From Vermamoeba vermiformis (lineage: Eukaryota): DNA of 64,000 bases. The translations under genes and the position numbers were made by a program. Positions 1,140 through 40,325 of the stretch are shown one piece after another. The stretch's first letter is position 1, and each line of letters begins with the position of its first letter. The notes beneath the pieces were generated by a model. The model was not told the DNA's origin and did no database searches. It worked only from the letters and a program-made list of their open reading frames with translations. Location: NCBI GenBank assembly GCA_045837725.1, contig JBEWZL010000149.1:1-64000 (forward strand), read 5' to 3'.

Positions 1140-1820
1140 ACTTCGCTTTCTACCTTGTAATATTATTAATTGTAGCAAATAATGAATATATGTACTTAAA
1201 CGACTTTGCTTTAGTGATCGATTTACTCACCACCGTCAAGGATTGTGGTACTCTGGTTCAGGCATTAGAAGAAGAGAACTCCATCACCCGAATGGACTTC
1301 AGAGGCATGAAAAAGGATTTTTAAGTTATTTTAACGCATTTAGTGCAGGTTGTAAATTGCCCCCAGCAATCATTACAGTTTTGCTGGATGCAGCTTGGCA
1401 CTGGGATTTGAATGTTTGCAAAATTGATCTAAAAGATACTGCTGAATAGTCTAGTAGTCAAACTATTACTTAGTAGTTCAATTCAGATGCTTATCAGTCC
1501 CATCATGGAGAGACTATACAATTTTATGATGATGGAGTGCACTATTTGAACTACGAAGGTATGCCTCTACCTTCAAAGGAGAAACGCTTGTCTAACAGTT
1601 ACTAGGTGCAGGGATTAATCATTCACCGGATATTTTTACTGGAGTAAAAGCTCAGTCATTGGTTTACTTTAACATCAGTCGTAATGAACTGTCTGCAAAA
1701 CAGTGCAAGGAGCTTGGTGTATTAGTAGCTAACTGCAGACAGCTCGAAGTAGTTAAAGCTCGATGTATGAGTATACTGCATCACTTATGACTGACACTAT
1801 TATTATTAGAAATGTAATTT
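1140..1820 (+). pseudogene. RNI-like leucine-rich-repeat gene fragment, possibly degenerate
   Basis: Exon pieces read TLVQALEEENSITRMDFR, CKLPPAIITVLLDAAWHWDLNVCKIDLK and SLVYFNISRNELSAKQCKELGVLVANCRQLEVVKAR, an LRR-like pattern. Some expected donors are non-canonical and I found no clean start or end. The region is CpG-poor. Confidence 0.35.
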
Positions 1821-1901
1821 ATACTCTTATCAATGTTCAAGTCCAAAGAAAACACTGTTTTATTACTTAATATAGATACACATAACATTAATTATAAAAA
1901 A

Positions 1902-4900
1902 TTATTTTGGAGTGCGGCGATAAAGCACCATAATGTCATCCTTGGAAACTGTGAGCATGCCTTTTCCAGTAGTACGAGAAACTAACATTCCAGTGTCAAT
2001 TAAAACTGGTTTTTTAACATTCCCATAGTGAACAGTTTTGGGAAAGTTTCTCTCAGGGAAATCATCTTGGACTGGCACATGAAAGTATTGGTAAAGAATG
2101 TGGCCAATTATTTCATGAGCTTTGTACTTGATGAGATCTGGGTCATTTCTTGTCTTGAATGGCTTCATTATTGGACTGGGCCTATTGTTTGGGCCTTTTG
2201 CTTCATTTCTTGGGGTTGAAGCCTTTTTCTGCTCCACAAAGGCATCACGTTCACGTTCTATCTTCTTTGCAACTCTTTTAGCCATCATAAAGATGAACGA
2301 GTTATCCACTGGGTGAGGCAATGGTTGTCCTTCTCGAAATTCCATTGGAGACGAGTAAAAAGGAGAGTAGAACTGCGGGACAACTTTATCCAAGAAAAAG
2401 AAGTTGTCTTTCTTAGCCAACAAAGCAGAAACACCAAGAACTGGCACCCACTCCAAGTGATTCACGTACAACAAGATGTTCATTTGGTTATGAACGTCTT
2501 TGGCCTCAATTCTATCCAACATTGGAAAGGTTGCACCATTCTTCTCATCCACATCTTGGTAAATTGCAAAATGCATTTTTCTAATAAAAAATCAGCTATC
2601 GGTTCGACGTAGCTACTTTTTTAACACTTACTCGTTTAATTCGGGGAAGCTTGCATTTGCCGTTTGCCAGAGACGAAAAAATTGTTGGTTTGCTATGGGA
2701 GGGGCAGGGATAAAGCCACCTTTTCCATCCTCTGGGATAATAGGGAAGCACGTCTCGATGAATCGAGTTATAACCTTTTTGGTTTTAGAACACTTGATAT
2801 TTTGCAGTGTGAAAGGTTCTTTGGAGGTGAGTAATTTGAAAACCTGCTTGTGCTTGGATGGGCTAATTTGCCATCCAGCAAAAAAGGATTCAAACAGGGA
2901 ATTCAGCAAGCTTGTAGCCAACACCATAGACTTTGAGGGGTATAACGGTTGAAAAAGCTCTTGCTTGGAGGTAGTTTGAAGTTGAACAGCTGCTTCCAAA
3001 GATTCACACAGTGGCCCTACTTGGGATACACGCCATTTGAAAGCTTGGTACAAGAATCTCCTTGTTAGAGCTAACTGGGGAGCCAATATATTCTGAGCAT
3101 CCTCATCTTCATTAACGATGGACTTCTTGTTAGAAGCGAGCAGAGGGAGATCACAATAACTACTCGCAGGCTTTTCCCAGTTGAAAGAAAATGTTCCTTG
3201 GGGAATGTAGATCTTGTTGTAGGCAAAGATATTTTCGATGATGTTCAAAGATGAAAACAGTTTTGGGTTGTGCAAGGTTGGGATGCTTCCAGACCAAATA
3301 AGTTGTTGAAGCTGTACAAATAAATTAAGCTTTCACTTGGCTCTATACACTTTACTTACATCCTCTAGCAACGCCAGCGCATTTATAACTTCGATATTGA
3401 GAACATCTTGCTCTACAGTAAAAAATCAGCTACGGGACCTTGGTAGCTACTATTATGCAACTTTTAGCTTTACCTTTCAAAGCTTCCTTATAAATTTGTT
3501 CGAACATTGTGTGCAAAGTAATTGCTTGTTGCTGCGTCAACAATTTGATAGATTCTGATGAAACTAATTGGACAGGGCTGAATCTCATCGACTCATCTGG
3601 GATTTTCCTTTCGCAACAAAGTCGATACAACTCCAGGTGAGTTTCAATGATGCTATCTGCAATCTCTTTCATTTCATCAAAAGCAGCTAGAAGGCGCTGC
3701 ACTCCCAAGTTTTGAAAACTAACTTCAAGCCTGATGCCTGCAGAACTCTCTTTCAAGGTTTGCAATATTCTGTCAATGTTCGCCTTTTCAGAACTTTTAA
3801 GAAAACTCTGTCCAATTTGAAGAGACCTAACTCGAACAATTAGACTCGTATCAACTAAACTTTTGTCCTTACTTGTTGAGTATAAACTTTTGAGTATCTT
3901 CTGGAATGTTGGATCCATGACAAACAATATCAAATGGAACCACTCCAACAGTATAGCAAGTATCGTTGTAGGGAGCATTATTTCTCCAAAACTGACTTGC
4001 AGAACAGTACACTTTCACCTCACGTACTGCATACTGTTTGGAGTGCCATTCTATCATGCAGCTTGACACTTGTCCCAAGCCCAAGTTTGGGAACAAAACA
4101 AAATGTCCCTTTGGTTGTTTTGAAGCAGCTTCATCTTTGGTTGGGGGGTGTCTCTCGTTTAGTTGCATGAGGTTTCCCAAAGGAGATTGAGAGGGGATTG
4201 CAAAGCATTCCAAGTATTGAGGAGACCAAACTAGAGACATGATGCTTCTGTAATCTGCTTCAGGACTAAAAACTAGATTAGAATAACATAGATTAGGTAA
4301 CCACGTACCTAATTGTGAATGCTAAGTCTTGTATGAACTGGGTGTTGTCAAAGAGGTGGTTATTGGGATCTGTTATGTCATCCAAATTGAATACTGATGC
4401 CACATGCTGCATGTGAGCTTCAAATCCAGCATGACTTTCAAAAATCTCTTTCTTGCCAAAATATTGAAACGAGAAACACAAACGAATCCTACACAATACT
4501 AAGCTACCATCGCTCTATTATCTATCAACTTACTTTTGACCATTGTAGGTAAAGTGATCTAGCTTGTTCTCAATGCAGACAAAGGACCCTACTTCAACAA
4601 CTCCCTGAATCTTATTGTGGAACTTGTTTTTGGTGAAAGCAAGCAGCTGATTATGCCATATCCCCATGGATCCCCTCTGCGGGCTTTCAACAATGCCTAA
4701 ATGCAGCTATCAGTCATCGGTAGCTAGTTTTTTCCAACAGCTATGTTTACGATAAAATACGAGCTATTGAAACTTGATAGCTAGTTTTACCTTGGAGTAG
4801 ATGCAAGTAGAATTGATCGATGAGCTGCTTTGGTTCTGGGAATCTTGATCTTGGACAATCCAGAAAACAGACATATACTTTCCACTTGCCAGCAACCTCT

Positions 4901-5778
4901 CTTTGATCAGGAGTTAATGAATTTCTAACCTAATATGTAACGTACCCTATCTGCACATTAACTACGTTGTGTAGAGTCACACCTTTGTATTCGTGCTTTA
5001 TCTTCATAGCCCACGAAGAGTATTGCGGTGTTAAGCTTAAATTTAAGCACTGCTTGAGTACTTTGAGCGTGTCCGTGTGCACAATCGTTGCATCAGCGTC
5101 TTGTGACAACTTGAAAGTCGAAGGAAGCACATTCGCTGGCTTGGATTCCAATGAATACACTTTTCTTGAGTTAATCCACTTAGTCCAGTGCGACTCAGTA
5201 GACTTATTCTTGATAGAACCAATGCTTGGGAAAAGAGACTGAGAGCTAGCAATTACTGCTTGCTCTAGTTCACTCGTGTAAACACCTCTTTTTTCTTTCC
5301 CTCTCTTAAGCCTTGCTAACAACTCTTGTTTGTTCTCCTCTGGTAACTCCCGCCATTCATCTTGAGTCACATCCAAGCTAAGTAGAGGTAAGCAATCCAC
5401 TACGCACCTTATGCCTTCACTTACTTTTCAAGTTTGAATATCACTTTCTTTTTGTCAGAAGAGGTCAACTTGCAAAAATCTTGTGGATGAAGACAAGGGT
5501 TATCAGCTTGTAAAGCGTTGTATTTTTCATAAGTAAAGTCTTTCTCCTATAGATATAATTGGCATTGGATCGACAATACTACAATGACTTACTTGCACTG
5601 CTTCGTGCTTTTTAATAACTTCTTGATCATCTTCAATATCCATTCTATCGTCGAGTTGGATCGCTTCATAATCAGCCTCAAAATTAACGACGAAATCAGA
5701 CGAGAGGTTGTTCTGGTCACTGACGCGTCCATTATCCGAGGACATGTCGTAAAAGCGGTTGCGGTTGCGACTGTCCAT
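1902..5778 (-). CDS. Large orphan multi-exon protein B (roughly 1,100 aa), unknown function
   Basis: ORFs 5527-5781, 4930-5400, 4293-4496, 3869-4240, 3430-3978, 2628-3275 and 1902-2576 join through ~45-95 nt GT-AG introns. Starts MDSRNRNRF and ends VLYRRTPK*. Confidence 0.65.
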
Positions 5779-5867
5779 CACTACAAATACAATTTATTTA
5801 GTATACAAAATATGACCTATTTACTAAGACAGATGGAAAAAAACTCGTCGGGAAACGGAGAAAAAAT

Positions 5868-8427
5868 CTATCCAAGTAAATAGGGAGGTAACTCTTTGTC
5901 AAGAGTCCACGCAGAAAAGTAGGACGCATGTAGATACGTCGGAGATCTACAATCTGCTTTAATCACACTCCAGCTCTTCTCCAATGTCGAAGTAGTAGGA
6001 GCTCTTTTGATTAGAGAGGAATAAGGAATGTCGCAAAACAGAAGGGCTGGAATCAGACGACATATCTCAAGGAACTTGAACATATCGCTCTTGCACCTAA
6101 ACAACAACTGCTTGAGCTCAAAGCAGATTTCTTGTTTAAACTTACGTTCGAAAGGCTTGCTTAGGGGCCTTTACACCAACTAGTCGTCTAGGAAAGCAAC
6201 CAAGACGCTCAAGTTTGATAAACATTGGATGCTTCACAAGTTTGTCAAACAGTGCCGAGTTAACTGCTTGCGAAAGAGCTGATGTATTTTTGGAACCAAA
6301 TTCGGATCTGTTGGCAAGCTCTGCGGTAATGTTGCATGACCAAGAATGCAGCACAGTGCAAAGGACGAACATAACCAGTTTCACTTTGATCTGAATTATG
6401 GTAAAATATCAGCTACGGCATTCTCGTAGCTAGTTTTTTGGAAACTTGCCTTAAGCTTCGCTTGTTGCGGGAGAGTATCCTCCAAAGTCAATGCCACCCA
6501 GTTTAGCATCGCTTCTTTGTCTGCTCCTGCCAGTGTTGGATCAAGCCAGCTTCGCAAAAACGGTTTTGGAATGGCCTCCACATTAACCTTGTTGAATAAT
6601 GAAAACTCTTTGACGGCATCGCTTTGAAGGGTCTCGTGTACAGCAATGAAGTACTCCGATTGAAAGTGAGTTCGTTCGTGAAGCTCCAAGAAGAATTCCT
6701 TGCTAGTTTCTAGTGTCCAACAATTAGAAGCTGAGATTTATAAGTATAAACTCCTACCCTCCACTTTCAGTTCAGCTAACAACAAACCAAACGCAACTGC
6801 AGGAGCATCCTCGATCTCCATATCATCGGCGTCAGTGTTTTCCTTATCTTTAGTTCCTGCGCCCTTTTCTTTTGCTTTATCATCGGCTTTGCCCTTGTCG
6901 TTAACATCATCTTCGTCGAGAAGCATTTTGAGTTCACTTATTTCGTTCTTTTTTGGTTGGGCTTTTGATTTCTTCGGCTTCTTAGGCTCTTGGAATGAAC
7001 GGTCAGAGTTCTCATCAAGTTCCACAACAATAGCTCGCTTTTTCTTGCTCTTGGTCGGGCTCGCAGGAGGCTCATCGGCATCAGAACTCTGCGAATCGAT
7101 AGTGGTTCGCTTTTTCTTTGGCTTGGTCGGACTTGCAAGGGACTCGACATCGTCAGAATTCTGCGAGTCTGACTCTATGCTATCGCGCACTTCGACTGAA
7201 ACATAGTGACGAAGTTTCACTGTATAAAGCCAGTTAGCAAAGTGCATATACATCCCTCCAATAACATACCAGACTTCTCTTTCAAGCGCATTGCCACAAG
7301 CTTGTTAGCCTCAACTAAGAACTGAGCATCGATGGAACTTAGATAGTGCATGCAAACTTCGAACAGAGCCATTGGATCTGGTGAAAGTTGTAGTTAAGCA
7401 ATTGATTACTAGGGTTCTAATACGCACCATTTGCAGTCGCCAAAAGAGACTTTGCAAACTTAGTGAGATCTATTTGCAAAAAAATTAGCTATCAGCGGTC
7501 CATAGCTACTTTTTCCTTACTGTTATTGCTTCCATCTCCCTTAGACTTGGTCGGAGAGGATAACTCTTCATTGCTCTCCTCGTCCTCCTGGTCGCTATAA
7601 CTTTCTTCGAATCCATTGCCATCATAGTCGTCAGTTACTTTCTCGTTCAGGTTGAGCTTATCGGTCTTCTTTGGGTTCGGTCTAAGATTGCCTCTTCGTG
7701 GTTTGGGACTGCTGATGCTTAAAGCCTCGGATTGGTTCGACGAGGCACTTGAAGCCTCGGATTGGCTCGATGAGGCACTTGAAGCCTCGGATTGGCTCGA
7801 CGAGGCACTTGAAGCCTCGGATTGACTCGACGAGGCATCATCTTCCTCCTCTTCTTCTTGCGAATCTTTTGAATGCGACTCAACCGAAATGTCCCGCTGC
7901 TGTAAAAACGAATATCAGATCCCTATAGCTGCTTTTTGGCGCGCTCTGTATTGCAAACTTACCACCAACTCTGAAGATCGATTTCCGTCGCCAGTCGCCT
8001 TGTGCCTCGATTGCCGTGAGCTCATGTACTTTTGCAACACCTTCATGCCCTCTTCGATGCTCTCTTTGGTCACTTTCAACTCCGGCCAGGTATCAGACAC
8101 CCACTGAGCGATATCATCCTGAGAAACAAAAGATTTATCGAGCATGTAGTGCGCGTAAAAGGTACTCACCCAGATTCTTCCCGGATGAGGGGTGGGTACA
8201 TTGTTTTTAGCGCCAATATCTGCCACGGTTAGTGTAGACACAATCTTCTTGATTTCTCCCAAAAGAGTATCGTGGGGAATCATTTTGAAGAGTGCAAACT
8301 TACTAGATACAAAATCCAAAAAAAATTCTAATTTCTGTTTAAAATTGGATTTGCTGAAGTCTCCCGACGAGACATTTTCGTTTAAGATCTTTTTAAGACT
8401 AGTGATTGCTTTTTGTATATCAGACAT
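5868..8427 (-). CDS. Orphan multi-exon protein A (roughly 730 aa) with Ser/acidic/basic low-complexity middle
   Basis: Starts MSDIQKAITSLKK at 8427. Exons join through short introns (e.g. 7962-7900, 7520-7470, 7269-7221, GC-AG 6449-6391). Has NLS-like PTKPKKKR and PTKSKKKR. Stop at 5868. Confidence 0.6.
7720..7838. repeat. 30-bp coding tandem repeat x4 (ASSSQSEASS on the minus strand)
   Basis: GAAGCCTCGGATTGGCTCGACGAGGCACTT repeated four times with few changes. Confidence 0.9.
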
Positions 8428-8559
8428 ACCTCGTGTTGTTGTAACTACAATCAAGGATGAAGGTTAAAACAACCGCCAAAAAAAAACCTGGTCAAATCAT
8501 TTTGGCCAAAAATGTACCGGAGGATATTTTAATACTAGCTATTGACTTTTAATAGCTAC

Positions 8560-9840
8560 TTGCACTTTATTTACAATAGTTGGGTACAACAAAAGTTCGT
8601 TCCATCATGCACCAGCAGCGCGCACAAAGAGGCCTCCGCATCGGATTTCGCAGTTGTAAAGCTTTAGCCACCATCACTAAGTAACGCACGCGTTAGAGAA
8701 TGTGTGGAATCAACGCATATTAACGCTTTTAAATCACTTACGGGTTGGGCAGTCTGCGGGTACTTGCTAATGGGGATCGAGTGAACCGAAAGAGTGAAGC
8801 TGTAAATCTTCAGCCACTAAAAGCAACTAACGCACGCATTAGTATATGCACTATTTTAACGTGTGTTAACAATTTTAAATAACTTACGCGTCAGGCAGTG
8901 TCAGAATCTGCGGGTGCTTGCGAATCGGGTATCGTGCAGATTCAAAATTCGAAGCTGTAAAGCTTCAGCCATGGAAACTAATAAAACAACGCGTTAGTAT
9001 ATGTATTGTATTAACGCGTATTAATAATTTTAAGTCACTTACGCGTCGGGCAGTGTCAGAATCTGCGGGTGCTTGCGAATCGGGAATCGTGCAGATTCGA
9101 AATTTGAAGCTGTAAAGCTTCAGCCATAGAAACTAATTAAATAACGCGTTAGTACATGTGGTCTATCACGGGTATTAATAATATTAAATAACTTACGCGT
9201 CGGGCAGTCTCAGAATCTGCGGCAGTTGCGAATCGGGAATCGTCCAGATTCGAAATTCGAAGTTGTAAAGCTTCAGCCATACAAACTAATAAAACAACGC
9301 GTTAGTATTTGTATTATTATGACGCGTATTAACCTTTTCAAACGACTTACGCGTCAGGCAGTCTCAGAATCTGCGGGCTGCTAAATCCGGCATCGGTCGG
9401 CAGATTCTAAATTCGAAGCTGTAAAGCTTCAGCCACGGAAACTAATTAAATAACGCGTTAGTATTTCTATTATATTAACGCGTATTAACAAATTTAATTT
9501 ACTTACGCGTCAAACAGCCTTAGAATCTGCGGGCGGCTAAATCCGGCATCGGTGGCAGATTCAAAATTCGAAGCTGTAAAGCTTCAACCATTAAAACTAA
9601 TAAAATAACGCGTTAGTATTTGTATTATATTAACGCGTATTAACAAATTTAATTTACTTACGCGTCAAACAGCCTTGAATCTGCGGGCTGCTAAATCCGG
9701 CATCGGTAGATTTGAACCATCATGCGTTGGAAATGTGCTAACGCACCGTTAGTAGTGCGTTACACCAACTACGCGTTGTATTTAACCGCGTAGTGTACAG
9801 AATTACCACGTGTGTTGTTCGTGGTAATAAAATTTAACAA
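8560..9840 (-). ncRNA. Putative spliced long non-coding RNA with 8 introns and repeated ~90-nt hairpin exons
   Basis: Each repeat unit has a minus-strand GTAAGT donor, a CTAAY branch point (mostly TACTAAC) and a TTAG acceptor (introns ~65 nt). An extra intron lies at 9806-9738 and AATAAA at 8571-8566. Spliced exons have no conserved long ORF. Confidence 0.55.
8640..9710. repeat. ~155-bp tandem repeat, ~7 copies
   Basis: ACTTACG anchors at 8736, 8882, 9037, 9191, 9345, 9501 and 9656 (spacing 146-156). Well-preserved units contain GAATCTGC...GCAGATTC, GAAGCT-GTAA-AGCTTC and up to three ACGCGT. Confidence 0.95.
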
Positions 9841-10218
9841 ATGCGAAGATTTTCTTGGTTGGCCAATTTTTTTTGGCCGATTTTTTTTGGCTTGGTTTTT
9901 TTTTGTTTCCTTTTTTAGTTCTAATTTACCGTTACTCACAACACCACTACACAACCTAGGTAAGTAATTGACATTAAAATTTAGTTCGCGTTAATAATTT
10001 ACTTGTATAGATCGTGGTTACGACCATCACGAAGACTTAGATTCGGAGTGAACCCGTTACGGACGGGATACGCACAGAAAAAATCGTAAGGTACGTAATT
10101 TTAATTTAAATTACATCAATAACGACAATTTAATACATTAATATTAATAAAAAATAATAGAACGGATTTTCAAATCTAGATCTGCTCGATCTCGGAATCT
10201 GCCGAGTGTTTCTCGGGG

Positions 10219-10455
10219 CTAGTGGCACTGCATGGTTCACGTCGAACCGCGTGCCTACTAGCATTACCAACGGTTCATCCGGGTAATGTCCGAGAGCACT
10301 GGTAGATCGATCAGTGCGCGATCCTTTGATGGTTCACGCCGCGTGCAAACTTGGGACTAGTAGGCACTGCCTGGTTCACGACGAACCGCGTGTCTATTAG
10401 AATTGTCGACGGTTCATCCGGGCAATTTCCAAGTGCATTCGGATGCGATCGGTTT
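10219..10455 (+). repeat. Duplicated (~138-bp period) structured element upstream of the Fpg/Nei start
   Basis: CTAGT(A)GGCACTGCNTGGTTCACGNCGAACCGCGTG...ACGGTTCATCCGGG at 10219 and 10357, with conserved stems. Confidence 0.75.
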
Positions 10456-10493
10456 TCGAGCAGGCACGTCCAGAGCGTAGCTAATAATTTACA

Positions 10494-11985
10494 GATGCCA
10501 GAGTTGCCAGAGGTGGAAGTTTTCGCACGAGAAGTAAAGAAACGAGGTAAGTCAAGTCTTCATTTAATTTACAATTTTTATAATAATTAATTAGCAACTG
10601 GTGCCGTCATTACGGCAGTGAATAAGATTAAATTCCACGCAAAATACGACGCGGAGATATTGGCAATACGCCAAAGTTTGCCAATGGAAGTCACAAATGT
10701 AAGTAAGGTTATTTTTGAATTATTTGCTCGTTACTAACCCGTGCTCACCAGGTAGTTTCACGTGGCAAGGAGATTGCCATCATGACCGACAAGGGCTCGG
10801 TGTTGTTTGGAATGGGCACTGGTGCTGCTTTTCACGTGGGGAGTCTGACGGAGCTCGCAGAGTGTCCACTGGACACGCGCTGCAACGCGTACTTCTCCTT
10901 AGACGACGGTAGGGCAATCTTCATTCTGGATTGCCAAACAAAGCAAAACCAGGTTTCCTTCAAGTGGAAACAAGGAGGAGATTGCCCTTTCGATCCAGCT
11001 CGTGGTCCACACGCGTCATCCAGCGAGCTGCTTCCACACGTCACGAGTTGCCTGATGGACGAAGGCAACGCCAAGTATTTCAAGGTATGTATGGGCATCG
11101 ATAACGAGTAGATTGAATAATATTGGACCAGGTAGCCACAATACTGGACGCATTGCTAAACCAGTCTCTGTTTAATGGAGTTGGTGCCTACTCGTCGAAT
11201 GAAATTTGCTATTGGTTTTACGAGTACACGGGTATTGCAAAAAAAGCGGATATTGGGAGCCCGTAGCTACTTTTTTTAACGGAATCATACTTGTAGGAAC
11301 TCGTCCGTGGGCAAACTTCAAGCATGCAATGCTTGACAGGGGTTTACTAGAGCAATTCATACGCCTAGTTCAAACCTACTTCAATTTCATGTCAGAGTAC
11401 TTGCGTCTACGGCCGTACATACCACCAACAAAGTACGACGAACGAGAAGAGCTCTCATTCAGAGCTGTTTTTCTCAAGGTTTATCGTGCGCAAAACGTTA
11501 CGCTGACTTCAGGAAATCGCGTTCCGGTGGTGACGATGGCGGCTGGCTTGACAAAAGCAGGGGCCTCCCACATGCGCATTACGAAAAGCAGTGCCAGGGT
11601 GTACGTGCCGTCATTATCACCCCAGGAGATAGAGGAGTTGCCCAAGTCATGGGGAAATATCGCAACCCCGAAGAAAGAAGATCCGCAAAATCTATTCGTT
11701 GGTGCGTTCTCGTGGTGGGGCATATCCGATAAACTTAAAGCAATTGATTCCCCACAAAAGGTAAGTATTACAAAGACAATTAATTCCACTAACATTATGC
11801 AGAATATCAACTTGCGCCCAAGCACCGCGTCACGATTGATGGAGTCCGAGTCAGACCAGAGCGAGAAGAGCGAGAAGACTAATGCAGTTAGCCCGAGGAA
11901 ATTTAAAGGAAGGGGGGCTTCACGGTTGGGGGGAAGAGCCAGGAAGATACACTGCTTCCAAAAAAAAATAGAAAGTATTTTTTAA
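10494..11985 (+). CDS. Fpg/Nei family DNA glycosylase/AP lyase (no zinc finger evident)
   Basis: N-terminal catalytic MPELPEVE. After splicing (introns ~10548-10594, 10699-10751, ~11085-11131, 11232-11297, 11761-11802) it has VVSRGKEI...LFGMG and the H2TH motif LLNQSLFNGVGAYSSNEIC. Basic C-terminal tail. Confidence 0.85.
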
Positions 11986-11999
11986 ATAAATAATTTTAT

Positions 12000-13156
12000 T
12001 TACATAAAATCATCGTCCATGAAATCAGAAGGTGATTCTTCGCCACTTTCGTCACCTTCTTCATCCTCTTCCTCTTCCTCGTCGTCCTCTTCCTCGTCCT
12101 CGTCTTCCTCCTCGTGTTCTTCCTCGCGCGAGAGCGATTCTACATCCGAACTATCTGAATGTTCGGAGTTGTGCTGTGGACCGCGTACCAGCTGTTGGTA
12201 TTTGACGTGATACGCATCAAACAGAGGGATAGTGTTTGATTCTGTATCTAGCTGCTTTATCTCGGCCACGTCCACGCCAAACTTCGCAGCAATGACCTCG
12301 GCGATATCTGGAAAGGCACTCCAGCCTTTCTTCAGCCTTTCAGTGGCCGTTTTCTTGCGTAATTCACTCTCGGAAAGAAGCTTGTGATCGCCAACAGCAA
12401 CGGGCTCAGATTTAATATCATCGCGACGAAAGAGCTGTAGATTATTTAGTAAATAAATAGTTAAAAGTTTTATTAGTTCGGCGTACCTTGAGAAAAGACT
12501 TTTCTTCTTCTTCCACGAGGTCGGCTTCGATAATATCCACGAGCTTCAGTCGTGCGATCGTATTTCTAATCAATTAATAATTTAGAACAGTAATAAAAGA
12601 GTTACCTTATTTTCTGAAGCTGTTCCATCTTTGAGATCTTCGTTTTTATTTGAAGTAGCGTATTGATATCGTTGATATCGAACCAATACCCTTCGCGTTT
12701 GCTTTGGTGAAGCTTGACGTTGGGGCCTAGCGAGCCTACGGGAAGTTTTTCACCTACGAAAAATAGCTATGAGGATCTGATAGCTAGATTACACACGTTA
12801 TTACCTAATCCTCCAAGCTTTGCATATTTTTTAACAGTAGGGCAGGCAATGCCAGTAATCTCGTTTACCCCGACCACCGTGCAGCGCAAATCTTGGTTTT
12901 CCTCGTCAACGAGGAAGTCTTCTTCAATTAACCTGTAATAAATTAAAGCGTCAGGAATTTTGTAATTGAAATCAAAATATTATAATAAAATATAAAACAT
13001 CGTGTGGATTAGAAACTGGAGACGTAAAAAAATTAATTAATTAAAATAAAAATTATTTCAGTTCGAGTTCGTGATCCGGATCTGGAAACTTTCAATTTTA
13101 AACGCAAAGCACTGATATTAAAGAATTTTATGCGTTACTTACTTAAAGTTAGCCAT
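12000..13156 (-). CDS. Orphan protein with long acidic C-terminal tail
   Basis: Starts MANFK|LIEEDFLVDEE; 5 exons join in frame (introns ~13142-12933, ~12804-12754, 12605-12566, 12486-12436). Ends EEEHEEEDEDEEEDDEEEEEDEEGDESGEESPSDFMDDDFM*. Confidence 0.7.
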
Positions 13157-13241
13157 CGTGTTGCAGTTTTTCCGTCACGTGTTTGTTTGTGTTCTCGATC
13201 TGAGCAATTTTACAAAAATCTTCCGAACGAACACCTCAACT

Positions 13242-15912
13242 ATGTCACGAAGACGTAGTTATCAGTAAGTAAGCGTTATATTTCAACGTAAATACTAATT
13301 AAAAATATTTAGGGCCTCAGACGATACTTTGATCCGGGCAATGTAAGTTTTTTAATTTAAGAAATAATATTATTAAAAATAAATTAAATATTCGTAATTA
13401 AAATTAGTTAAAGCATTGTTATATTACAAAATTAATAAGTAATAATTACGACTAAAATTTTATTTTAAAAAGGGCTCGAAACACTACGTACGAGACGACC
13501 GTCAACGACATTGAAGCACGGGTCAGGCGAGAGGAGCAACAAGCTGCCGACAGAGCCGCTCGGCTAGCATCTCGCAATGGGGAGCGTGCGAGTCAAGAGA
13601 GCGCAGGGCAGCAAACTCGTGGAAATGGACGCGGTCGTGGTCAAAGCCAGAACTCTAGTGGTAGTCAATCTGGGCGCCGCCGCCCCCCGCGAAGAACAAG
13701 AGAGCAGTCGCAAGGACAAGCCGACCCTGATGCGACGCAGCTAGTTTCGTCGGCACCGCCAACGCAGGCACTACCGCCAAACAGTTCAGCTAGCCAGGTA
13801 CGTTAAAAAACTAGCTACGAGGGTTTGATAGCTAATATTTTTCACGTAGGAGGGCAATGACCAAGCATTGGTGCCTGAACCTTCGAACACCAATGTGATG
13901 ATACCTGAGCCTGATGCAGTGAGGCAAGACAACCAAAGTGCCTCACGGGAGAACGAGCGCATTGTCCCGCCAGAGTCAAGCAGTGGGGAGAAAGCAAGCC
14001 AGCACTCTTCGGGGGAGAATTCAGGTGTCGGTCATTCCGAGTCTGGCAGCGGCAAGCAATCGAGTGGCAGTGCATCCCAGAATAATGCCAACGTTATCCC
14101 TGAGTCTGGAGATGGTGTTAATTCGTTGCCTGACGGTGAGCAGGAAAGTGCGGACTCAGCGAGCCCCTCTCCCAGCAGCGCCGTTGGCGCTGATCAATCG
14201 AATGCGGACTCAGCGAGTCCCCCTCCCAGTGGTGCAGAGCAATCCAATGCGGACTTAACGAGCCCCCCTCCCAGTGGAGTAGTTGCCGAGCAATCTTCCT
14301 CTGTTGAAGGCTCAAACCAAGCCACTCCGGGGCAGGTGAGAAAAAACCAGCTACAGGAAGCCAATAGCTAATATTTTATAGGCAAGCAATGCTGTTGCAA
14401 GTGGTGTGGTGCCAAATGACTCAGCTGGCTCATCTCAGGACATTGAAAGCGCCCAGGTAAGTCAACTTTTCCTTTCCTTTACCTTTGTTCTAACTAATAA
14501 CCTACAGCGACCTCGAAATAACATTGATTTGGATCAGCCAATGGCTTTATCTCGTTACATCAACCACATCACGTTCACCAGTGGTGAACTTGAGGAGAAA
14601 ATAGACCTGCCCTTGGCAAACGAAGGGCGGCAGCTATCAAGCTCCGCGTCAACACCACAACCGCGAATGGTATGCTGTTATTAGTTTAAGATAAAAAACT
14701 AAATTTATCTATTTTAGACGACTCGCGCAGCATCTGCTCGTGAGGAGGATGTGACCGAGCAGATTGAGGACACAGAACTTCAGTCTGGCCCACGAGAAAA
14801 GTCTGCAGCTCCCAAGAAGTCCTCACCAAAGAAAAAGTCTACGCGGGAAGAGAAAAGCCAGGAGGAGGAGGATAACGAGCAGCCTCGTGCAAGAGATGCA
14901 GCCACCAAGTCCCCGGCAAAGAAGAAGAGGGTGGTGGAAGATAGCGAGGAGGAGGAAGAGCGACCTCCTTCAAAAAAACCAGCCTCCAAGTCCCCATCAA
15001 AGAAAAAGCAGGTGGGCAAGGTGGACGACGAGGAGGAAGAGCGGCCTCGGTCAAAAAAAGCAGCCTCCAAGTCCCCGTCACCAAAGAAAAAGCAGGTGGG
15101 CAAGGTGGATGAGGAGGAGGAAGAGCGGCCTCGGTCAAAAAAAGCAGCCTCGAAGTCCCCGTCACCAAAGAAAAAGCAGGTGGGCAAGGTGAGCGACGAC
15201 GAGCGGCCTCGGTCAAAACATGCAGCCTCCAGCAAGTCTCCGGAAAAACCTTCTGGAAAACGAAAAGCTCGCGATGGGGACAGTGGCGAAGATGAGCCTC
15301 CTCAAAAAAAGGTACGCATCTAAAATTAAAATTGTTATTGATAACTAACTTTAGTATTTGCAGCGAAAAGTACAGCCGTACTTCGTGAAGAAGGTTCAGG
15401 TCTTGAAGCATGCCCAGTACGATCCTAATGTGGATGAACTTGTGGCCAAGTACCGACAGGATCACCCCGGGACAACAAAGAAGGAGGCCAAGGAACAAGT
15501 CGAGAAACAAATTGCCAGGCGGCGAAAAAAGGACCGCAAGAAAAGAAGTAAGTTATTAATTATTTTTAAATGCTGACTTTAACTTGCTCTTGTAGAGTAC
15601 ATAGAAATGAAGAAGTACCAGGAGAGCGACGGTATTTTCTTCGCCAGGTCTCGCTTCCAGAGAATTGTCCGCGACATCACTGCTGATGTCGGACAAGAGT
15701 ATAGGTTCCAGAGGAGTGCTCTGGAAGCTCTTCAATACTCCTCGGAAATGTTCATCACGAACGTTTTCGAGATGGCTACCTTGGCGACCGTTCACGCTGG
15801 TCGCCAAACATTGCAGGTCAATGACATGCGATTGGTGTACAATGTACACAGCATGGCAGAAGGATCTGCAATTCATTTGTTAAAAGATCGACTTCAACAG
15901 AGTCGCCAGTAG
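13242..15912 (+). CDS. Giant histone H3-like protein (~731 aa; C-terminal H3 histone fold, ~630-aa disordered N-terminus)
   Basis: Nine exons (13242-13264, 13313-13342, 13473-13797, 13850-14335, 14382-14456, 14508-14669, 14718-15311, 15364-15547, 15596-15912) total 2196 nt in frame. The last exon IEMKKYQES...RFQRIVRDITADVGQEYRFQRSALEALQYSSEMFITNVFEMATLATVHAGRQTLQVNDMRLV aligns without gaps to H3 REIRRYQKS...[30 protein letters not shown]...HAKRVTIMPKDIQLA. Confidence 0.85.
14860..15245 (+). repeat. ~75-84-bp coding repeats (EEEEERPRSKKAASKSPSPKKKQVGKVD) x~5
   Basis: Visible in ORF 14751-15323; several copies are nearly identical at DNA level. Confidence 0.9.
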
Positions 15913-16002
15913 TCCCTTGTAAAATAAATGGGTTTTTTATATCTACAGTCGCAAAAGCAGCTATGGGAATCCTATAGCTATTATTTTCGTGTCAGTAGTT
16001 GA

Positions 16003-16489
16003 TAGACCGTCCGATTTTCGTACGCCTGTCTTGGACTGGTGAAAGAGACCGTCCGATTTTCGTACGCCTGTCTGCGTGTGGTTAAAGAGACCGTCCGACT
16101 TTCGTACGCCTATCTTGGACTGTTTAAAGAGACCGTCCGATTTTCGTACGCCTAGCTTGGACTGGTTAAAGAGCCTGTCCGATTTTCGTACGTGTACTTG
16201 GACTGGGTACACAGACCGTCCGACTTTCGTACGCCTGTCTTGGACTGGTGAAAGAGAGCGTCCGATTTTCGTACGCCTATCTTGAAGGGCTAAAGAGACC
16301 GTCCGATTTTCGTACGCCTGTCTGCGTGTGGTTAAAGAGACCGTCCGACTTTCGTACGCCTATCTTGGACTGGTTAAAGAGAGCGTACGATTTTCGTACG
16401 CCTGTCTGCGCGTGGTTAAAGAGACCGTCCGACTTTCGTACGCCTATCTTGGACTGGTTAAAGAGAGCGTACGATTTTCGTACGCCTAT
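16003..16489. repeat. 42-bp tandem array, ~12 copies, partly alternating variants
   Basis: Unit AGACCGTCCGATTTTCGTACGCCTRTCTTGGACTGGTTAAAG starts at 16004, 16046, 16088, 16130 and onward. CTGCGTGTGG and CTTGGACTGG variants alternate. Confidence 0.95.
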
Positions 16490-16586
16490 CATATGACATT
16501 AAAAAAACAGCTATAGAAACTTTGTAGCTACTTTTTACAATATTTTATTTTTAACCCTCTCACCCCCAAACCCTAAAGCTATATTA

Positions 16587-16985
16587 ATTGGTCAGGGATC
16601 GTCTGATCTTCAGACGAATGGTCAGGAATTCTCAGAAATTGGTCAGGGATCGTCTGATCTTCAGACGAATGGTCAGGAATTCTCAGAAATTGGTCAGGGA
16701 TCGTCTGATCTTCGGACGAATGGTCAGGAATTCTCAGAAATTGGTCAGGGATCGTCTGATCTTCAGACGAATGGTCAGGAATTCTCAGAAATTGGTCAGG
16801 GATCGTCTGATCTTCGGACGAATGGTCAGGAATTCTCGAAAATTGCCTGGGATCGTCTGATCTTCAGACGAATGGTCAGGAATTCTTGAAAATTGCCTGG
16901 GATCGTCCGATCTTCAGACGAATGGTCAAGAATTCTAGGAAATTGGTCTGGGATCGTCCGATCTTCGGACGAAAGGCCTAGAATT
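16587..16985. repeat. 51-bp tandem array, 8 copies
   Basis: Unit TGGTCAGGGATCGTCTGATCTTCAGACGAATGGTCAGGAATTCTCAGAAAT, degenerating rightwards. Confidence 0.95.
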
Positions 16986-17586
16986 CTTCAAAAGTTTTAG
17001 GGTACTACCATCCCAGCCCTAGCCTTTTAAGTAGAATAATCATGTGGAAATGATCCAGCAAAAGAACATAAGAATAAATAAAAAAGTAAGTTTATTATTT
17101 TGCCTAATTATTTTAATTATAATTGATACTGATATTGTTTTTGTTTGCAACAGCTTTGACTTCACTGGTCTTCTGCATGCATTATGTGTTCCAAAGCATC
17201 TTGGGCGTCATTGCCAATCTGACTAACATCTTCAAGGTGCCCATCTTACCTTTCAGCCTACCAGATCTCAAGAGTACTGGCAGGAGCAACTATCCTTGAA
17301 AGTTTCTTCATTTTCATCCATAGCATAGACTCACAGTCCTACACTCTGTAGCAACAGCACACTTTTGAAATACCATCAGAACCTATTTTGACACAACACT
17401 TGATTGTTGTAAGCCTTGCAACTAACTCTTCATAACAAACATCAATCCCTTGAGTTGCATAAATATCAAATATTATTGAGATAGCCCCAGCCCCAATCAA
17501 GTAAAGCTTGAAACACATGTTTTTGCAGGATTTTTTATTTGAAACAGAGTTTTTTACACTACAATCACTGCTTTCCAACATTTTCT

Positions 17587-30400: not shown

Positions 30401-31472
30401 ACATTTTAATTTCAGAAGATCTATATGCATACCTTTTAATGTTGATCTCGATGTCGACAATCCACTGATCGTTTTCGGGCGTTGTATTTTTATAAGTATC
30501 ATAACCGCTGAGCTCTTTCACTTCTTCGGCAGTCGCTTTATGTATGCGGTAAGACCACAGCTCTGGATCAGAGTTCAATTGTACCCAGTCAATGGGCAGA
30601 TCTAAATGATGATTGAGTCGAACATTGGGGCGTTTCGGTTCGGCGTAGCGAACAACGAGGCCATCTTCATTGCGAAGCTCGAGTTTATCGTAGTATTTCG
30701 ACAAGGGAACTACAGTGACTGGTGCACCTGGATTTTCTTGCAAGAATTTGGATTTGTATTGTTGCAAAGTTGCAATCTTTTCATCAGCTGACAACGCCCC
30801 GCTTGCCATCATGAAACGTTGCCCTGTTGTGTCGAGTAATTTAGACGCGCCTCGTAAAAATTTAAACTTACCCTTGTAGTGATCGAAGTAAATGCTTGCA
30901 TCCTCCAGCAATACTATGGAATGAGCAAGATGCCAGCCCAATGATTGATCGTGCGTCAAACGAAGCCACTGACGACAAGTCAAGCCAACCGCGTGCAATT
31001 GCTTTCTTGTAAGACCAGTGAAGATTTGCAATACCAACTCGTCTGGAAGCGTGTACTCTTCTTCTCCCAAGGACTGGTAAGCACTGCTGTCCGCTGAGGC
31101 GAGGAGCTTATTGAGAGCTGTCACTTTAAGTTCGGACAAGTCGGTTTTTTTTCTAGGATTTAAAACTGCCCAATCATCCGCGTCTTCTGCGCTGTCGTCG
31201 TCATCGGCATAAGAGTCATCGTCGGCGTCGGCTGCTTTTTTCTTGGAATTATTTTTTGGCTCATCCGAGTCAGAAATATCTTCTTCGCTCTCTTCGCTTT
31301 CTCCTTTTTTCTTTTTTTTATTATTGGTCTTTTTTGGGACAGAAGAAGATTTTTTGGTGATTTTCTGCTTTTTCTTAGGTCGCTCTTCCTCTTCGTCCGA
31401 CGGATCGTCCTCTATTATCGCTACCTTGCGCTTTCTTGCTAATCTGTTAGATGTACGTGTATTTGTAAGCAT
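27493..31472 (-). CDS. F-box / SNF2-family helicase, paralog 1
   Basis: F-box TLPDELVLQIFTGLTRKQLHAVGLTCRQW; YKYQLDAIAWM, GAVLADEMGLGKTLE, WHRIVLDEGHE, AASGTNL, ESQAIGRAYRQGQ. Confidence 0.88.
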
Positions 31473-31605
31473 AATGAGTTCCGTTGGCGACCTGTGGTGT
31501 TTTGATCTGAAAAGAAATTAAAGTGCCGTTCACTTCGGCGTAAAAAAAAGTGTCAAAACGGCCACAAAAAAAAACATGACACACAGCTTTTATTTAAACA
31601 ATTGG

Positions 31606-34600: not shown

Positions 34601-35738
34601 TATTGAGTGCTGTCCAAGGTATGTTATTGATCGTGTAGCGATGGAACTTGTAAGAGTACGGCACGAACAGCTCTGCTAAAGCCACGACATCGTCTTTCTC
34701 ATCTTGAAGTTGCATCACTTCGCCATATTCACCGCCTTCACCATCATCGTTGTAATGGAAGTGCCACGCGTTGCGAGGTTTGTGGAAACGAATGGTGACA
34801 GGAGTGCCCTTGTGCTTCGCCATGAACTCTTTGCGAACCAAGATGTGCAGCTGGTCCTGCTCATCCCAGTCGTAGTTGCTTATCTCGTCGCGCTTCTCTT
34901 GAAACTCTGCATACAGACGTTAATCATCACGAAGAAATTATCATCAAAGGTAGAACGTACCATCAAGTTGAAGGTAATATTCAACATTCTCCATTAGAAC
35001 GGTAGAATAGGCGTTATGCCAGCCCAATGACTGATCGTTGCTCAATCGAAGCCATTGACGGCATGTCAAACCAACGCCATACAGATCTCGGCGTCGTAAG
35101 TTTGAAAATATTTGAAGAATTAACTCGTCAGGCAACGTGTATTCTTCATCCTCCAACCTGTGATTATACTTCGCTGCCTCTCTAGTTGAGGTCAATTTAC
35201 GCAATGCTGCTGCTTTTAGTTCGGCTGGATTTGGCTTGTCTTCGGTAGAAGTCTGGACATTTGTATTGTTTTTCTTTGCCGGCTCTGATTTTCTCTTGGG
35301 TGATATTATTTTAGGTGCCTTTTGCTTTGTTAAATAACTTGTTTTCTTTGGGCGCGGTTTTTTGACCTCGATCTCTTCCGAACTTTCTGAAACTGATATT
35401 GAACTGCTTGAACTCTCATCGTCGCTTTCTTCTACTACGATTTTCTTCGTTGCTCTGGCAGTTGCCTTTTTAGCAATTTGCCTTTTTGGCGGCTTTTTTG
35501 CTGCTGATTTTTTTAATTCTTGATCTGATTTTTCATCTTCGCTGCTACTGCTCTCCGACGACTCTGCCTTCTTTTTTGTAATTTTGGCGATAGTTTTCTT
35601 TGCTGGCGCTTTTTTTATGACTTTTTTTTCAATTTTTTGTTTTTTCTTTGGTCGATCTTCTTCTGACAGATCTTCAACTTCATCGGCTTTTCTTTTCTTG
35701 TTAGCCAATCTCGAAGATACTCTTGTTTTTGGAGGCAT
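31606..35738 (-). CDS. F-box / SNF2-family helicase, paralog 2
   Basis: TLPDELILQIFSNL..CRQW; GGVLADEMGLGKTME; VLDEGHE; ESQAIGRAHRQGQ. Confidence 0.88.
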
Positions 35739-35844
35739 TTTGCAGCTCCTATGGTATCAGCCACAAGTTCGGAGAAAAAATGCAACGAAATTTTGAACAG
35801 CAATTTTAAATGACCGATGGTACAAGGTACCTGGTAAAATCAAA

Positions 35845-38800: not shown

Positions 38801-39862
38801 TTTGCACGGAGGGAGAAAGTTACCGAAATTGTATTGCATGTTTACGGTTGGCGGAAAAATATCTGCAAAGGCAACTACATCTCGGTTACTGTCGCGCAAT
38901 TTGATGAGACGCCCACACGTGTAACCCTCTTCGACACTGTCTTCAGGATTATCTTCCGCCCAACTGAGCCACCGCATATTTTTACTATAGTGGATCGTGA
39001 CAGGCTTGCCAGGGTGTTTTTTCATGTAAGAGTTGTAACAAGCCCGTTCCCATGCAGTCTGTTCTCCTTTCGTACGAAAATGATTATTTCTTCTTCCTCC
39101 CTTCTTTCGTTCAGGGTCTGTTTAGCGATAAAAATTAGTATGTTTTGCGATCTGAATTTGACCGTCAGTTGTGTTTGCTTCTGAGAAGGCAATCGTCCGA
39201 AAGTCAAAGTCAAAAAGTGAGCCGAAAGTGAGCTTACCTTCGTACGCAGAGTACGTATCCATTTTTTCTCGCAAAGTTAACGTGAGCGCAAGGTGCCAGC
39301 CAAGCGATTGATCATTGCTCAAGCGATACCACTGACGACACGCTAAAGCAACTGAATACATCTCACGTCTCTTCAAATACGATAATATCTGAAGAATCAA
39401 CTCGTCAGGTAGGGTATACTCTTCGTCTTCAAATCGTGTTGCTATTTGACGTTGCTCTTTGAGTGTTGTCAAGCGCTGCAGAGCTTTTTCTTTTTGAGCT
39501 AGATCTTCGGCAATTTTGATCGAGTCATCAGCAGTAACTGTATTCGTTACAATTTTAGACACTGCTACTTTTTTAGCTCGGCGTGAAGGGCGCCCTGAAT
39601 CAACTGTCGATGTTTGATCCATCAAATCATTTTCGGCGGTTGTTGCAACATTAGTGTCACTATTATTTTGTGATTTGATATCATTATTATTAACAACCGA
39701 CTTGCTAATTTTTGGCACTTTAGAATTTCTTTCTTTTTTTTCTGGTTCAATTTTCGCTTTCTTTTTAGGTCGATCTTCTTCCTGGTTGACTGGATCCTTC
39801 TCAATTTCCTCCGCCTTTCGCTTCTCGGCTAATCTGCCTGATACCCTCGTTTTGGGTGGCAT
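35845..39862 (-). CDS. F-box / SNF2-family helicase, paralog 3
   Basis: TLPDELILQILSYL..CRQW; GGVLADEMGLGKTLE; VLDEGHE; ESQAIGRAFRQGQ. Confidence 0.88.
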
Positions 39863-40325
39863 TTCTGGTGGTCAACTGTAGTTCTTCGAAAAATGATCGT
39901 TTTTTATCAATGCAAAAAGGTTATTCGCGACAACGCCGTCTTTTCATCACAACTTATCGATGCATCACAACACACCGTGCATAATTTATACAAACTTTTG
40001 CAAATCTCAAATAACGAACGTTTACATCCATTCTTAGGGCGCAGAATGGGAATAATGGATCTAAAACTTGCCCGTTACTCGTTTGTTCGGTAAGGAAAAC
40101 TCCACGAAAGCATGCAGTGCTTAAATAACAAACGGCAATATTAAATCGAAGCAAAGCAAAGATTTATTTTGGAAATATCATTTGGATTTGAACTAAAAAT
40201 TCAATTTTTCTCTCGTGGTCCTCGCGGTTCGATACTATTTAATAAGTTTTATTTGCGACACATAATTATTTAAATTTTCGAACAATCGGATCAAGCACAA
40301 CTTACTTGACTCTAATCCGAAAACC

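Follow-up and report, generated by a model that had tools for sequence, protein, structure and literature searches.

Regulators of the MerR family have dyad operators of about 21 bp, and the baculovirus protein IE1, which has an acidic activation domain, binds DNA as a dimer. The homologous regions (hrs) of baculovirus genomes are imperfect palindromes of 24-30 bp that are dispersed in non-coding DNA and that, in the parts of the literature cited here, are described as enhancers and as replication origins acting through a virus-encoded factor (PMC4535591, PMC2834656). Symmetric elements borne by introns have been described for Amoebophrya and for Hypoxylaceae, again in the portions cited of the two reports (PMC7789003, PMC8469720). 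Here we analyse a dyad of the form AGCTA-N11-TAGCT that is repeated within an island of about 15.1 kb (positions 1846-16985, ends approximate) in the genome of Vermamoeba vermiformis. The window that we analysed comprises 64,000 nt, positions 1 to 64,000 of the forward strand of contig JBEWZL010000149.1 (GenBank assembly GCA_045837725.1), and the island within it consists of six intron-rich genes and three tandem arrays. We tentatively read the copies as sequence-specific dyad sites on double-stranded DNA, recognised by a dimeric protein and fitted into introns. A narrow search of main texts on palindromic introns yielded nothing describing this motif.

The AGCTA-N11-TAGCT dyad

A pattern scan of the window recovered all 12 exact copies of AGCTA-N11-TAGCT that the original prediction had listed, between 2594 and 16529, and no exact match in the 49 kb outside the island, as that prediction had also claimed for the stretch from 17 to 64 kb. 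Among 100 dinucleotide-preserving shuffles of the sequence the mean number of sites was 0.06 and the maximum was 1, and none of the 100 reached 12. The comparison with other spacer lengths that had been proposed along with the motif, run here within the window, found only spacer 11 to be enriched: of the spacers from 0 to 30 nt, 11 gave 12 matches, 8, 15, 19 and 20 gave one match each, and the other 26 gave none. The first base of the spacer is a pyrimidine and the last a purine in 12 of 12 exact copies, again as claimed.

Relaxing the arms added few copies. With no mismatch allowed the scan returned the 12 sites in the island and none outside. One arm mismatch gave three matches, all in the island, of which two were register shifts overlapping true sites and none had A/T flanks. 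Two arm mismatches gave 22 matches (3 in the island and 19 outside), which is the chance level, with A/T flanks at 11248 only. The copies at 7910 and 11248, proposed earlier as degenerate in one arm, are real, with three mismatches (all within one arm) and two mismatches, respectively, and with A/T flanks present; apart from them, decayed copies are almost absent. Single half-sites are no commoner than background, with 13 AGCTA and 12 TAGCT in the island outside the sites, a density near that of the rest of the window. Neighbouring sites stand singly, 57-2711 nt apart. The motif can serve as a cheap and highly specific marker for locating further copies of the family to which the island belongs.

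The complete element extends beyond the two pentamers and forms a dyad of about 37 bp. On the plus strand the consensus of the 12 copies is AAAAWA-N-Y-AGCTA-Y-N-R-R-N-N-N-Y-Y-N-R-TAGCT-A-N-TWTTTT, in which we number AGCTA as positions 1-5 and TAGCT as positions 17-21. All 24 half-sites read AGCTA, and the flanking pyrimidines are present in 23 of 24 and 24 of 24 of them. Purines at positions 8 and 9 and pyrimidines at 13 and 14 occupy 45 of 48 cells (p 6.6e-11). No consensus is seen at the centre, positions 10-12.

This symmetry is not accompanied by covariation. Positions 7-15, 8-14 and 9-13 form 14 Watson-Crick pairs of a possible 36, as compared with 12.7 when partners are shuffled among copies (P 0.38). 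We also fitted a 16-pair hairpin model to 15 sense-oriented copies (the 12 exact copies, the two degenerate ones and one from a relative): 77.5% of cells pair, versus 76.9% after column shuffling, the observed value being attained in 183 of 500 shuffles. No variable pair covaries, whether among the inner pairs or in the 16-pair model. Because pairing at the variable positions is no better than with shuffled partners, the symmetry is a property of the columns, which is expected for a dyad read by protein and not for a selected stem. Outside the 5-bp arms the pairing does not exceed chance, and a G+C-rich stem continuing up to a small loop is therefore not found. Fold energies of the 39-nt segments are modest (-5 to -12 kcal/mol), the sense strand is not consistently favoured, and the antisense strand often folds equally well or better. 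A search of Rfam returned no match at the gathering score and five weak matches at E up to 5, none of them at any site, and a tRNA scan found none.

It is the combination of invariant arms, rigid spacing, column-wise symmetry in both the purine/pyrimidine and the A/T content without covariation, and arms that are kept while the spacer drifts that leads us to suggest double-stranded DNA read by a dimer. Each copy would offer two invariant half-sites, Y-AGCTA-Y-N-RR, facing each other across 3 bp of free sequence, with an A-tract on one outer side and a T-tract on the other, and the protein dimer would read sequence and spacing, not a hairpin. The dimer could be encoded by the island, or it could be a host factor that the island recruits. 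The island would require a site of this kind for roughly every kb of its length, and by analogy with dispersed viral palindromes their role might be enhancer-like, replication-related or chromatin-loading.

Placement in introns and overlap with splicing signals

We built six gene models for the island by hand (genes A to F, detailed below), in which excising 33 short introns leaves uninterrupted frames. Taking the 12 exact and two degenerate copies together, 11 of 14 lie in 10 of these 33 coding introns, and none of the 14 overlaps a coding exon of the models, as had been predicted. Gene C holds four exact sites: 2594-2614 in intron C10 (2581-2631), 3428-3448 in intron C8 (3413-3473), and two in the 94-nt intron C4 (4697-4790), where 4762-4782 is the first and 4705-4725 the second in the sense direction. 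Single exact sites are found in intron B3 of gene B (6411-6431 within 6391-6449, a GC-AG intron), in intron A2 of gene A (7487-7507 within 7470-7520), in intron E2 of gene E (12765-12785 within 12754-12804), and in introns F3 and F4 of gene F (13813-13833 within 13798-13849, and 14349-14369 within 14336-14381). The degenerate copies occupy intron A1 of gene A (7910-7930 within 7900-7962, A/T tracts kept) and intron D4 of gene D (11248-11268 within 11232-11296). The earlier count of nine intronic exact copies thus stands; they are distributed over five genes (A, B, C, E and F) and not over four. When the degenerate copies are counted, every one of the six island genes has at least one site, which is not significant (P ~0.22, from a simulation that used 34 introns where the final models have 33).

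Three exact sites lie outside coding introns. The site at 8537-8557, with weak A/T tracts, is 110 nt upstream of the start codon of gene A; that at 15959-15979 is 47 nt past the stop codon of gene F; and that at 16509-16529 stands between the 42-bp and 51-bp tandem arrays.

The site-bearing introns are 46-65 nt long, or 94 nt with two sites, and 21 of 23 site-free introns are 40-53 nt. In the sense strand the order is constant: 5' splice site, A-tract, site, T-tract and AG, with the site ending 8-28 nt before the AG. Read in this direction, the T-tract is a pyrimidine tract, and the 3' arm TAGCT followed by RAT is a branch-site word (CTRAT) in six of nine exact intronic copies. Site-free introns of the island genes are without A6/T6 tracts by eye, and the 15 that we folded did no better than shuffles (z -2.4 to 1.5), so the tracts belong to the element and not to the local intron style. 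Introns with sites fold better than those without, with z down to -3.0. We note separately that the site-free intron B4 (6097-6145, minus strand) has a near-palindrome of another kind, with GAGCTC at its centre, and its fold is better than that of shuffles (z -2.4).

The overlap with branch words invites the explanation that the motif is a functionless by-product of the branch-point consensus in AT-rich short introns, an outcome for which the original prediction had allowed. The 3' arm does overlap CTRAT, and in site-free introns the equivalent position is taken by CTAAC, CTAAT or CTGAT; ordinary introns of the window, however, are without the motif, there being no site in about 63 crude intron-like candidates from the host flanks. 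The branch word accounts for at most the CT of the 3' arm, and not for the 5' arm, the spacing or the A-tract, and 12 sites against 0.06 expected is not an effect of composition. We regard a by-product as scarcely credible.

A second explanation takes the placement in introns at face value and makes the unit a pre-mRNA element, in which a hairpin, or a protein bound to it, controls splicing of these short introns. The A- and U-tracts would pair, AGCUA would pair with UAGCU, and the putative branch A at position 23 would be left unpaired between helices; such a hairpin could mask the branch site and the pyrimidine tract until a factor opens it, or it could present the branch A in a pre-formed helix. 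The position of the site, always between the 5' and 3' splice sites, agrees with this, as do the better folding of site-bearing introns and the branch word, which is found in the related intron described below as well. So does an asymmetry that follows the strand of the gene: all 11 intronic copies have G or C, and never T or A, at position -1, and A occupies the dyad-related position 23 in 6 of the 11, an arrangement that would keep that A unpaired. Positions 0 and 22 form a pair in 10 of the 15 copies in sense orientation (UG in five, UA in four and CG in one). The 5' splice sites of site-bearing introns tend to be weaker (GTAAGT in 2 of 10, against 7 of 15 in site-free introns), which is not significant. 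Other features do not fit an RNA structure. Besides the lack of covariation, the lack of an Rfam family and the good folding of the antisense strand, positions 6 and 16 form a C-A mismatch in the sense RNA of 5 of 14 window copies, an element that acts by structure only needs no invariant stem sequence, and three copies lie outside coding introns. A hairpin would also hide the branch site and pyrimidine tract in introns whose removal keeps all six frames open. We consider a pre-mRNA element, the main rival of docking by a dimer, possible though somewhat unlikely. If it is real, these would be spliceosomal introns with a conserved helix built in around the branch point, which would bear on the recognition and regulation of short introns.

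Under our preferred reading of the copies as docking sites for a dimer, the location in introns of about 50 nt would follow from the density of the island, which is 65% coding. The sites would then be shaped to double as splicing signals, the 3' arm with RAT serving as the branch site and the T-tract as the pyrimidine tract. Locally, the dyad gives way to the requirements of splicing, or to those of an RNA helix in which the branch A stays unpaired.

Several observations weigh against docking by a dimer. Copies are enriched in coding introns over the remaining non-coding sequence (11 of 14, against the 36% share of introns in the non-coding DNA of the island, P 0.0015), and two of the three copies elsewhere, at 15959 and 16509, have flanks that look intron-like by eye, in the latter case on the minus strand. 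The strand-linked asymmetry of positions -1 and 23 indicates that RNA determines at least part of the pattern. From core to core the half-sites are separated by about 16 bp, or 1.5 helical turns, an unusual spacing but a known one, of which the Gal4-type CGG-N11-CCG is an example. The only recognised DNA-binding domain that searches of Pfam, NCBIfam, PDB and the Atlas detected among the island proteins is a histone fold. Finally, the frame of a more distant relative of gene C (P0001, with 57% identity in exon 10) continues across the intron equivalent to C10 and cannot encode the exact motif there. Not every member of the family therefore has the site, although the test favours introns free of in-frame stops, which site-bearing introns usually contain.

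The original prediction had favoured a dimeric DNA-binding site over an RNA hairpin. The lack of covariation, the purine/pyrimidine columns and the intact arms of a diverged relative support that preference, while the intron enrichment and the strand-linked asymmetry point to a possible role at the RNA level.

The island, its relatives and its genes

The relative in question is a locus of 1024 nt, L015, which carries a gene B relative that is 73% identical over window positions 6143-6714. Its intron orthologous to B3 keeps the site, with arms identical at 10 of 10 positions, the same spacing, and a spacer identical at 3 of 11 positions, although this is one case. The L015 site obeys the purine/pyrimidine rule and has AAT after the 3' arm. 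The neighbouring gene B intron, which is site-free in the island, is site-free in L015 too. The 5' ends of the two B3 introns differ: the island intron starts GCAAGT and the L015 intron GTAACA.

L015 was the only island-related locus among 14 found by a pattern scan of metagenome and whole-genome shotgun data; the other 13 were AT-rich repeats or fully paired, terminator-like hairpins. A similar scan of the viral collection gave seven matches, all single terminator-like hairpins. Five of the loci (L008, L011, L012, L016 and L018, from one metagenome and of 19-28% G+C) have in common a repeat with AGCTAYTARTAATTTATAGCT after GATA, and represent an unrelated AT-rich family that matches the pattern by chance.

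Public assemblies contain 17 representative relatives of gene C exon 10, at 27-58% identity, and none of the 13 members that we read across 10 clusters of gene C relatives is informatively named. Most of 16 aligned relatives, at identities as low as about 24%, share the residue at which exon 10 ends. Because most relatives are exon-sized frames that start and stop as exon 10 does, introns C9 and C10 are old; one relative, P0010, is without intron C10. A word index of longer proteins gave no homologue of exon 10, and exon 11 had two unnamed relatives among proteins of similar length. The viral collection contained no gene C relative, and the metagenome collection had no match to P0014.

These relatives bear on the idea that the unit is a selfish miniature palindrome, like an introner element or a miniature inverted-repeat transposable element, which created or entered introns and was mobilised by an island enzyme recognising the arms. 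Inverted repeats borne by many introns are found in introner elements and symmetrical (stw)introns, at least in the portions cited of those reports (PMC7789003, PMC8469720). The site-bearing introns consist of little beyond splice signals and the element, intron C4 looks like two tandem units, and the island belongs to what seems to be a multi-copy family with deletion derivatives. On the other hand, the copies are not alike along their whole length: only arms and tracts are common to them, the spacers bear no relation to each other, and decay does not form a gradient. No target-site duplications were seen by eye in the flanks, and the roughly 63 host intron-like candidates contain no copy. 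For the two introns that could be judged, the position of C10 is old and the B3 site is kept in the 73%-identical L015, so that neither is a recent insertion. We consider a selfish palindrome improbable.

Contigs from another organism (run X3) cover the window from 1846 to about 16985 at 90-99% identity and do not cover the flanks. Of 83 pieces, 13 are at least 99% identical, 27 are at 95-99% and 43 at 90-95%. One contig has 171 unlike letters beyond 1846, and depth is 0 across 16986-17500. Six joints are seen in these contigs (5810/8316, 7721/7782, 10258/10404, 12995/14693, 13995/14233 and 14822/15162), including internal deletions of 2.5 kb (5810-8316) and 1.7 kb (12995-14693). Three of the six are changes in the copy number of tandem repeats, with coding repeats varying at 7721-7782 and 14822-15162. 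The picture that emerges from these alignments is of a repeated unit, probably a multi-copy family with deletion derivatives that is present in several diverged versions in another organism.

The joints also address the second option of the original prediction, a recombination site. Dyad symmetry with a free centre is typical of the targets of site-specific recombinases and nucleases, which might cut in or near the spacer to bring about rearrangement, change of copy number or initiation of replication, and the weak match of gene D to the Nei/Fpg family could point to a glycosylase or lyase. None of the six deletion or copy-number joints ends in or beside a site, however: no end comes within about 60 nt of one, and for most the distance exceeds 200 nt. 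An element would run a risk by scattering fourteen targets through its own genes, and Pfam searches of the island exons detected no recombinase or nuclease family. We judge this explanation very improbable.

Three genes on the minus strand make up the left part of the island. Gene C (1902-5778) encodes 1116 aa, has 10 introns and is an orphan without a Pfam match. An Atlas query with it gave low recognition and unrelated bacterial clusters, and a structure predicted for exon 10 from 17 sequences (predicted local distance difference test score, pLDDT, 65.5; predicted template modelling score, pTM, 0.33) had a best Z of 4.2 among 48,161 chains, from which we make no fold call. Gene B (5868-7372; 432 aa, four introns) and gene A (7417-8427; 298 aa, two introns) are likewise orphans, the former with a lysine- and acid-rich middle and the latter with an acidic, serine-rich repeat tail; exon 1 of gene A, predicted alone, had a pLDDT of 57. 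Between the divergent gene groups lies an array of 5.9 copies of a 155-bp unit (8796-9712).

To the right, gene D (10495-11985, plus strand) encodes 411 aa, with five coding introns. Its 33-aa exon at 11132-11230 has weak NCBIfam matches to Nei2 and Fpg (E 0.024 and 0.078) at the position expected for the helix-two-turn-helix, and its N-terminus reads MPELPEVE by eye, which we take to be typical of the Nei/Fpg family. A PDB sequence search with a gene D exon gave nothing usable. Gene D may provide the island with a DNA glycosylase. Gene E (12000-13156, minus strand; 267 aa, four introns) has an acidic C-terminal tail. By eye it could possibly be read as a helix-turn-helix followed by a coiled coil and then the tail, which no tool supports: no family was found in Pfam, in NCBIfam, in a PDB sequence search of the helix-turn-helix-like exon, in the word index of longer proteins or in the Atlas. 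Gene F (13242-15912, plus strand; 731 aa, eight introns) has a C-terminal fold of the histone H3 type behind a repeat-rich extension of about 630 aa. Histone was the only family that Pfam detected in the island exons (E 1.8e-17), and the C-terminus aligns with PDB H3 (E 6e-14) without gaps or loop insertions. The extension includes 4.4 copies of an 84-nt (28-aa) lysine/glutamate/serine-proline repeat (14877-15231).

The right end of the island is occupied by two further arrays, at 16004-16987, of 42-bp (11.6 copies) and 51-bp (7.9 copies) units. Palindromes in tandem arrays are frequent in replicon-like or virus-like elements. The 51-bp units are 93% alike and each contains a perfect 7-3-7 palindrome, CGTCTGA-TCT-TCAGACG. 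Each 155-bp unit contains a 6-4-6 palindrome, GAAGCT-GTAA-AGCTTC, as well as ACGCGT several times over; its minus strand also includes a complete segment resembling an intron (GTAAGT, a word like a branch site and TTTTAG). The palindromes in the arrays differ from AGCTA-N11-TAGCT, and their presence is in keeping with our reading of the sites.

The window is eukaryotic. The flanks of the island encode SH3, BTB, PAP2 and Ariadne/IBR domains as well as four F-box domains, and their introns are short and of the GT-AG type with CTAAC- or CTGAT-type branch words. A local cluster of F-box genes is formed by three long open frames on the minus strand that fall within 10 kb of one another (30402-31517, 34947-35756 and 39125-39871).

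Three RNA runs from the same species gave 47, 52 and 30 partly fitting reads on 1500-17500, mostly poly-T artefacts at 9881-9916, and the island copy is silent in these libraries. In run X10, reads at 6284 and 6314 fit the island over about 30 nt, and their loose ends are identical to L015 (121-210). Because these ends match letter for letter, a gene B paralogue like that of L015 (73% identical) is transcribed, at a low level.

Considered together, these features suggest a larger and unlikely, though in our view still arguable, interpretation, namely that the island represents an undescribed class of mobile or episome-derived eukaryotic element. Such an element would bring its own chromatin kit (the H3-type histone with its 630-aa tail, the acidic proteins and perhaps the Nei/Fpg-like enzyme) and a private 37-bp dyad, about once per kb, read by a protein of its own, and its intronic DNA would serve as docking site, branch site and pyrimidine tract. 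If a dimer encoded by the element does dock at the sites, they would provide a handle on an uncharacterised family of repeated 15-kb elements. Docking would also show how a compact, intron-rich mobile element can fit long cis-elements into a genome that is 65% coding, by means of intron signals with a double meaning.

Comparison with known systems

Introner elements and (stw)introns resemble the island in that many introns carry inverted-repeat modules capable of forming hairpins. In the sections cited of the two reports, those introns are alike along their whole length, genome-wide and recent (PMC7789003, PMC8469720). The island copies, in contrast, have only 2 x 6 nt and the tracts in common, with unrelated spacers, old intron positions and, within the window, confinement to the island.

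The outline of A-tract, stem, loop and T-tract is also that of bidirectional intrinsic terminators of bacteria and phages and of palindromes like the repetitive extragenic palindromic (REP) elements. Most of the 21 public loci that matched the pattern are in fact terminator-like, with fully paired stems in AT-rich DNA, and five of them carry one shared repeat. In terminators and REP-like palindromes the stem is paired all the way to the loop and the arms differ from genome to genome, whereas the island sites have an inner stem at chance pairing, invariant arms and a setting in spliceosomal introns.

Helices with an unpaired branch adenosine are known from the duplex of U2 with the branch site and from domain VI of group II introns. 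If the hairpin forms in RNA, the putative branch A would similarly be unpaired between helices near the 3' splice site. The island introns differ in having ordinary GT/GC-AG ends, and the host uses ordinary branch words.

Operators of the Gal4 and MerR types consist, like the island dyad, of two short invariant half-sites with a fixed, free spacer, and are read by dimers, as we propose for the island. The half-site sequence is different, purine/pyrimidine and A/T-tract constraints are added, and the sites lie in introns versus promoters. Neither a Zn2Cys6 nor a MerR domain was found in the island proteins with Pfam or NCBIfam.

Baculovirus hrs are similar as dispersed palindromes in the non-coding DNA of a mobile genome. 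Searches of Pfam and of the viral collection detected no IE1-like protein and no baculovirus gene among the island proteins, and hrs are clustered, tandem repeat units, whereas the island sites are single and intronic. What sets the island apart from both the hrs and the Gal4-type sites is that its sites stand singly, lie in introns and double as splicing signals.

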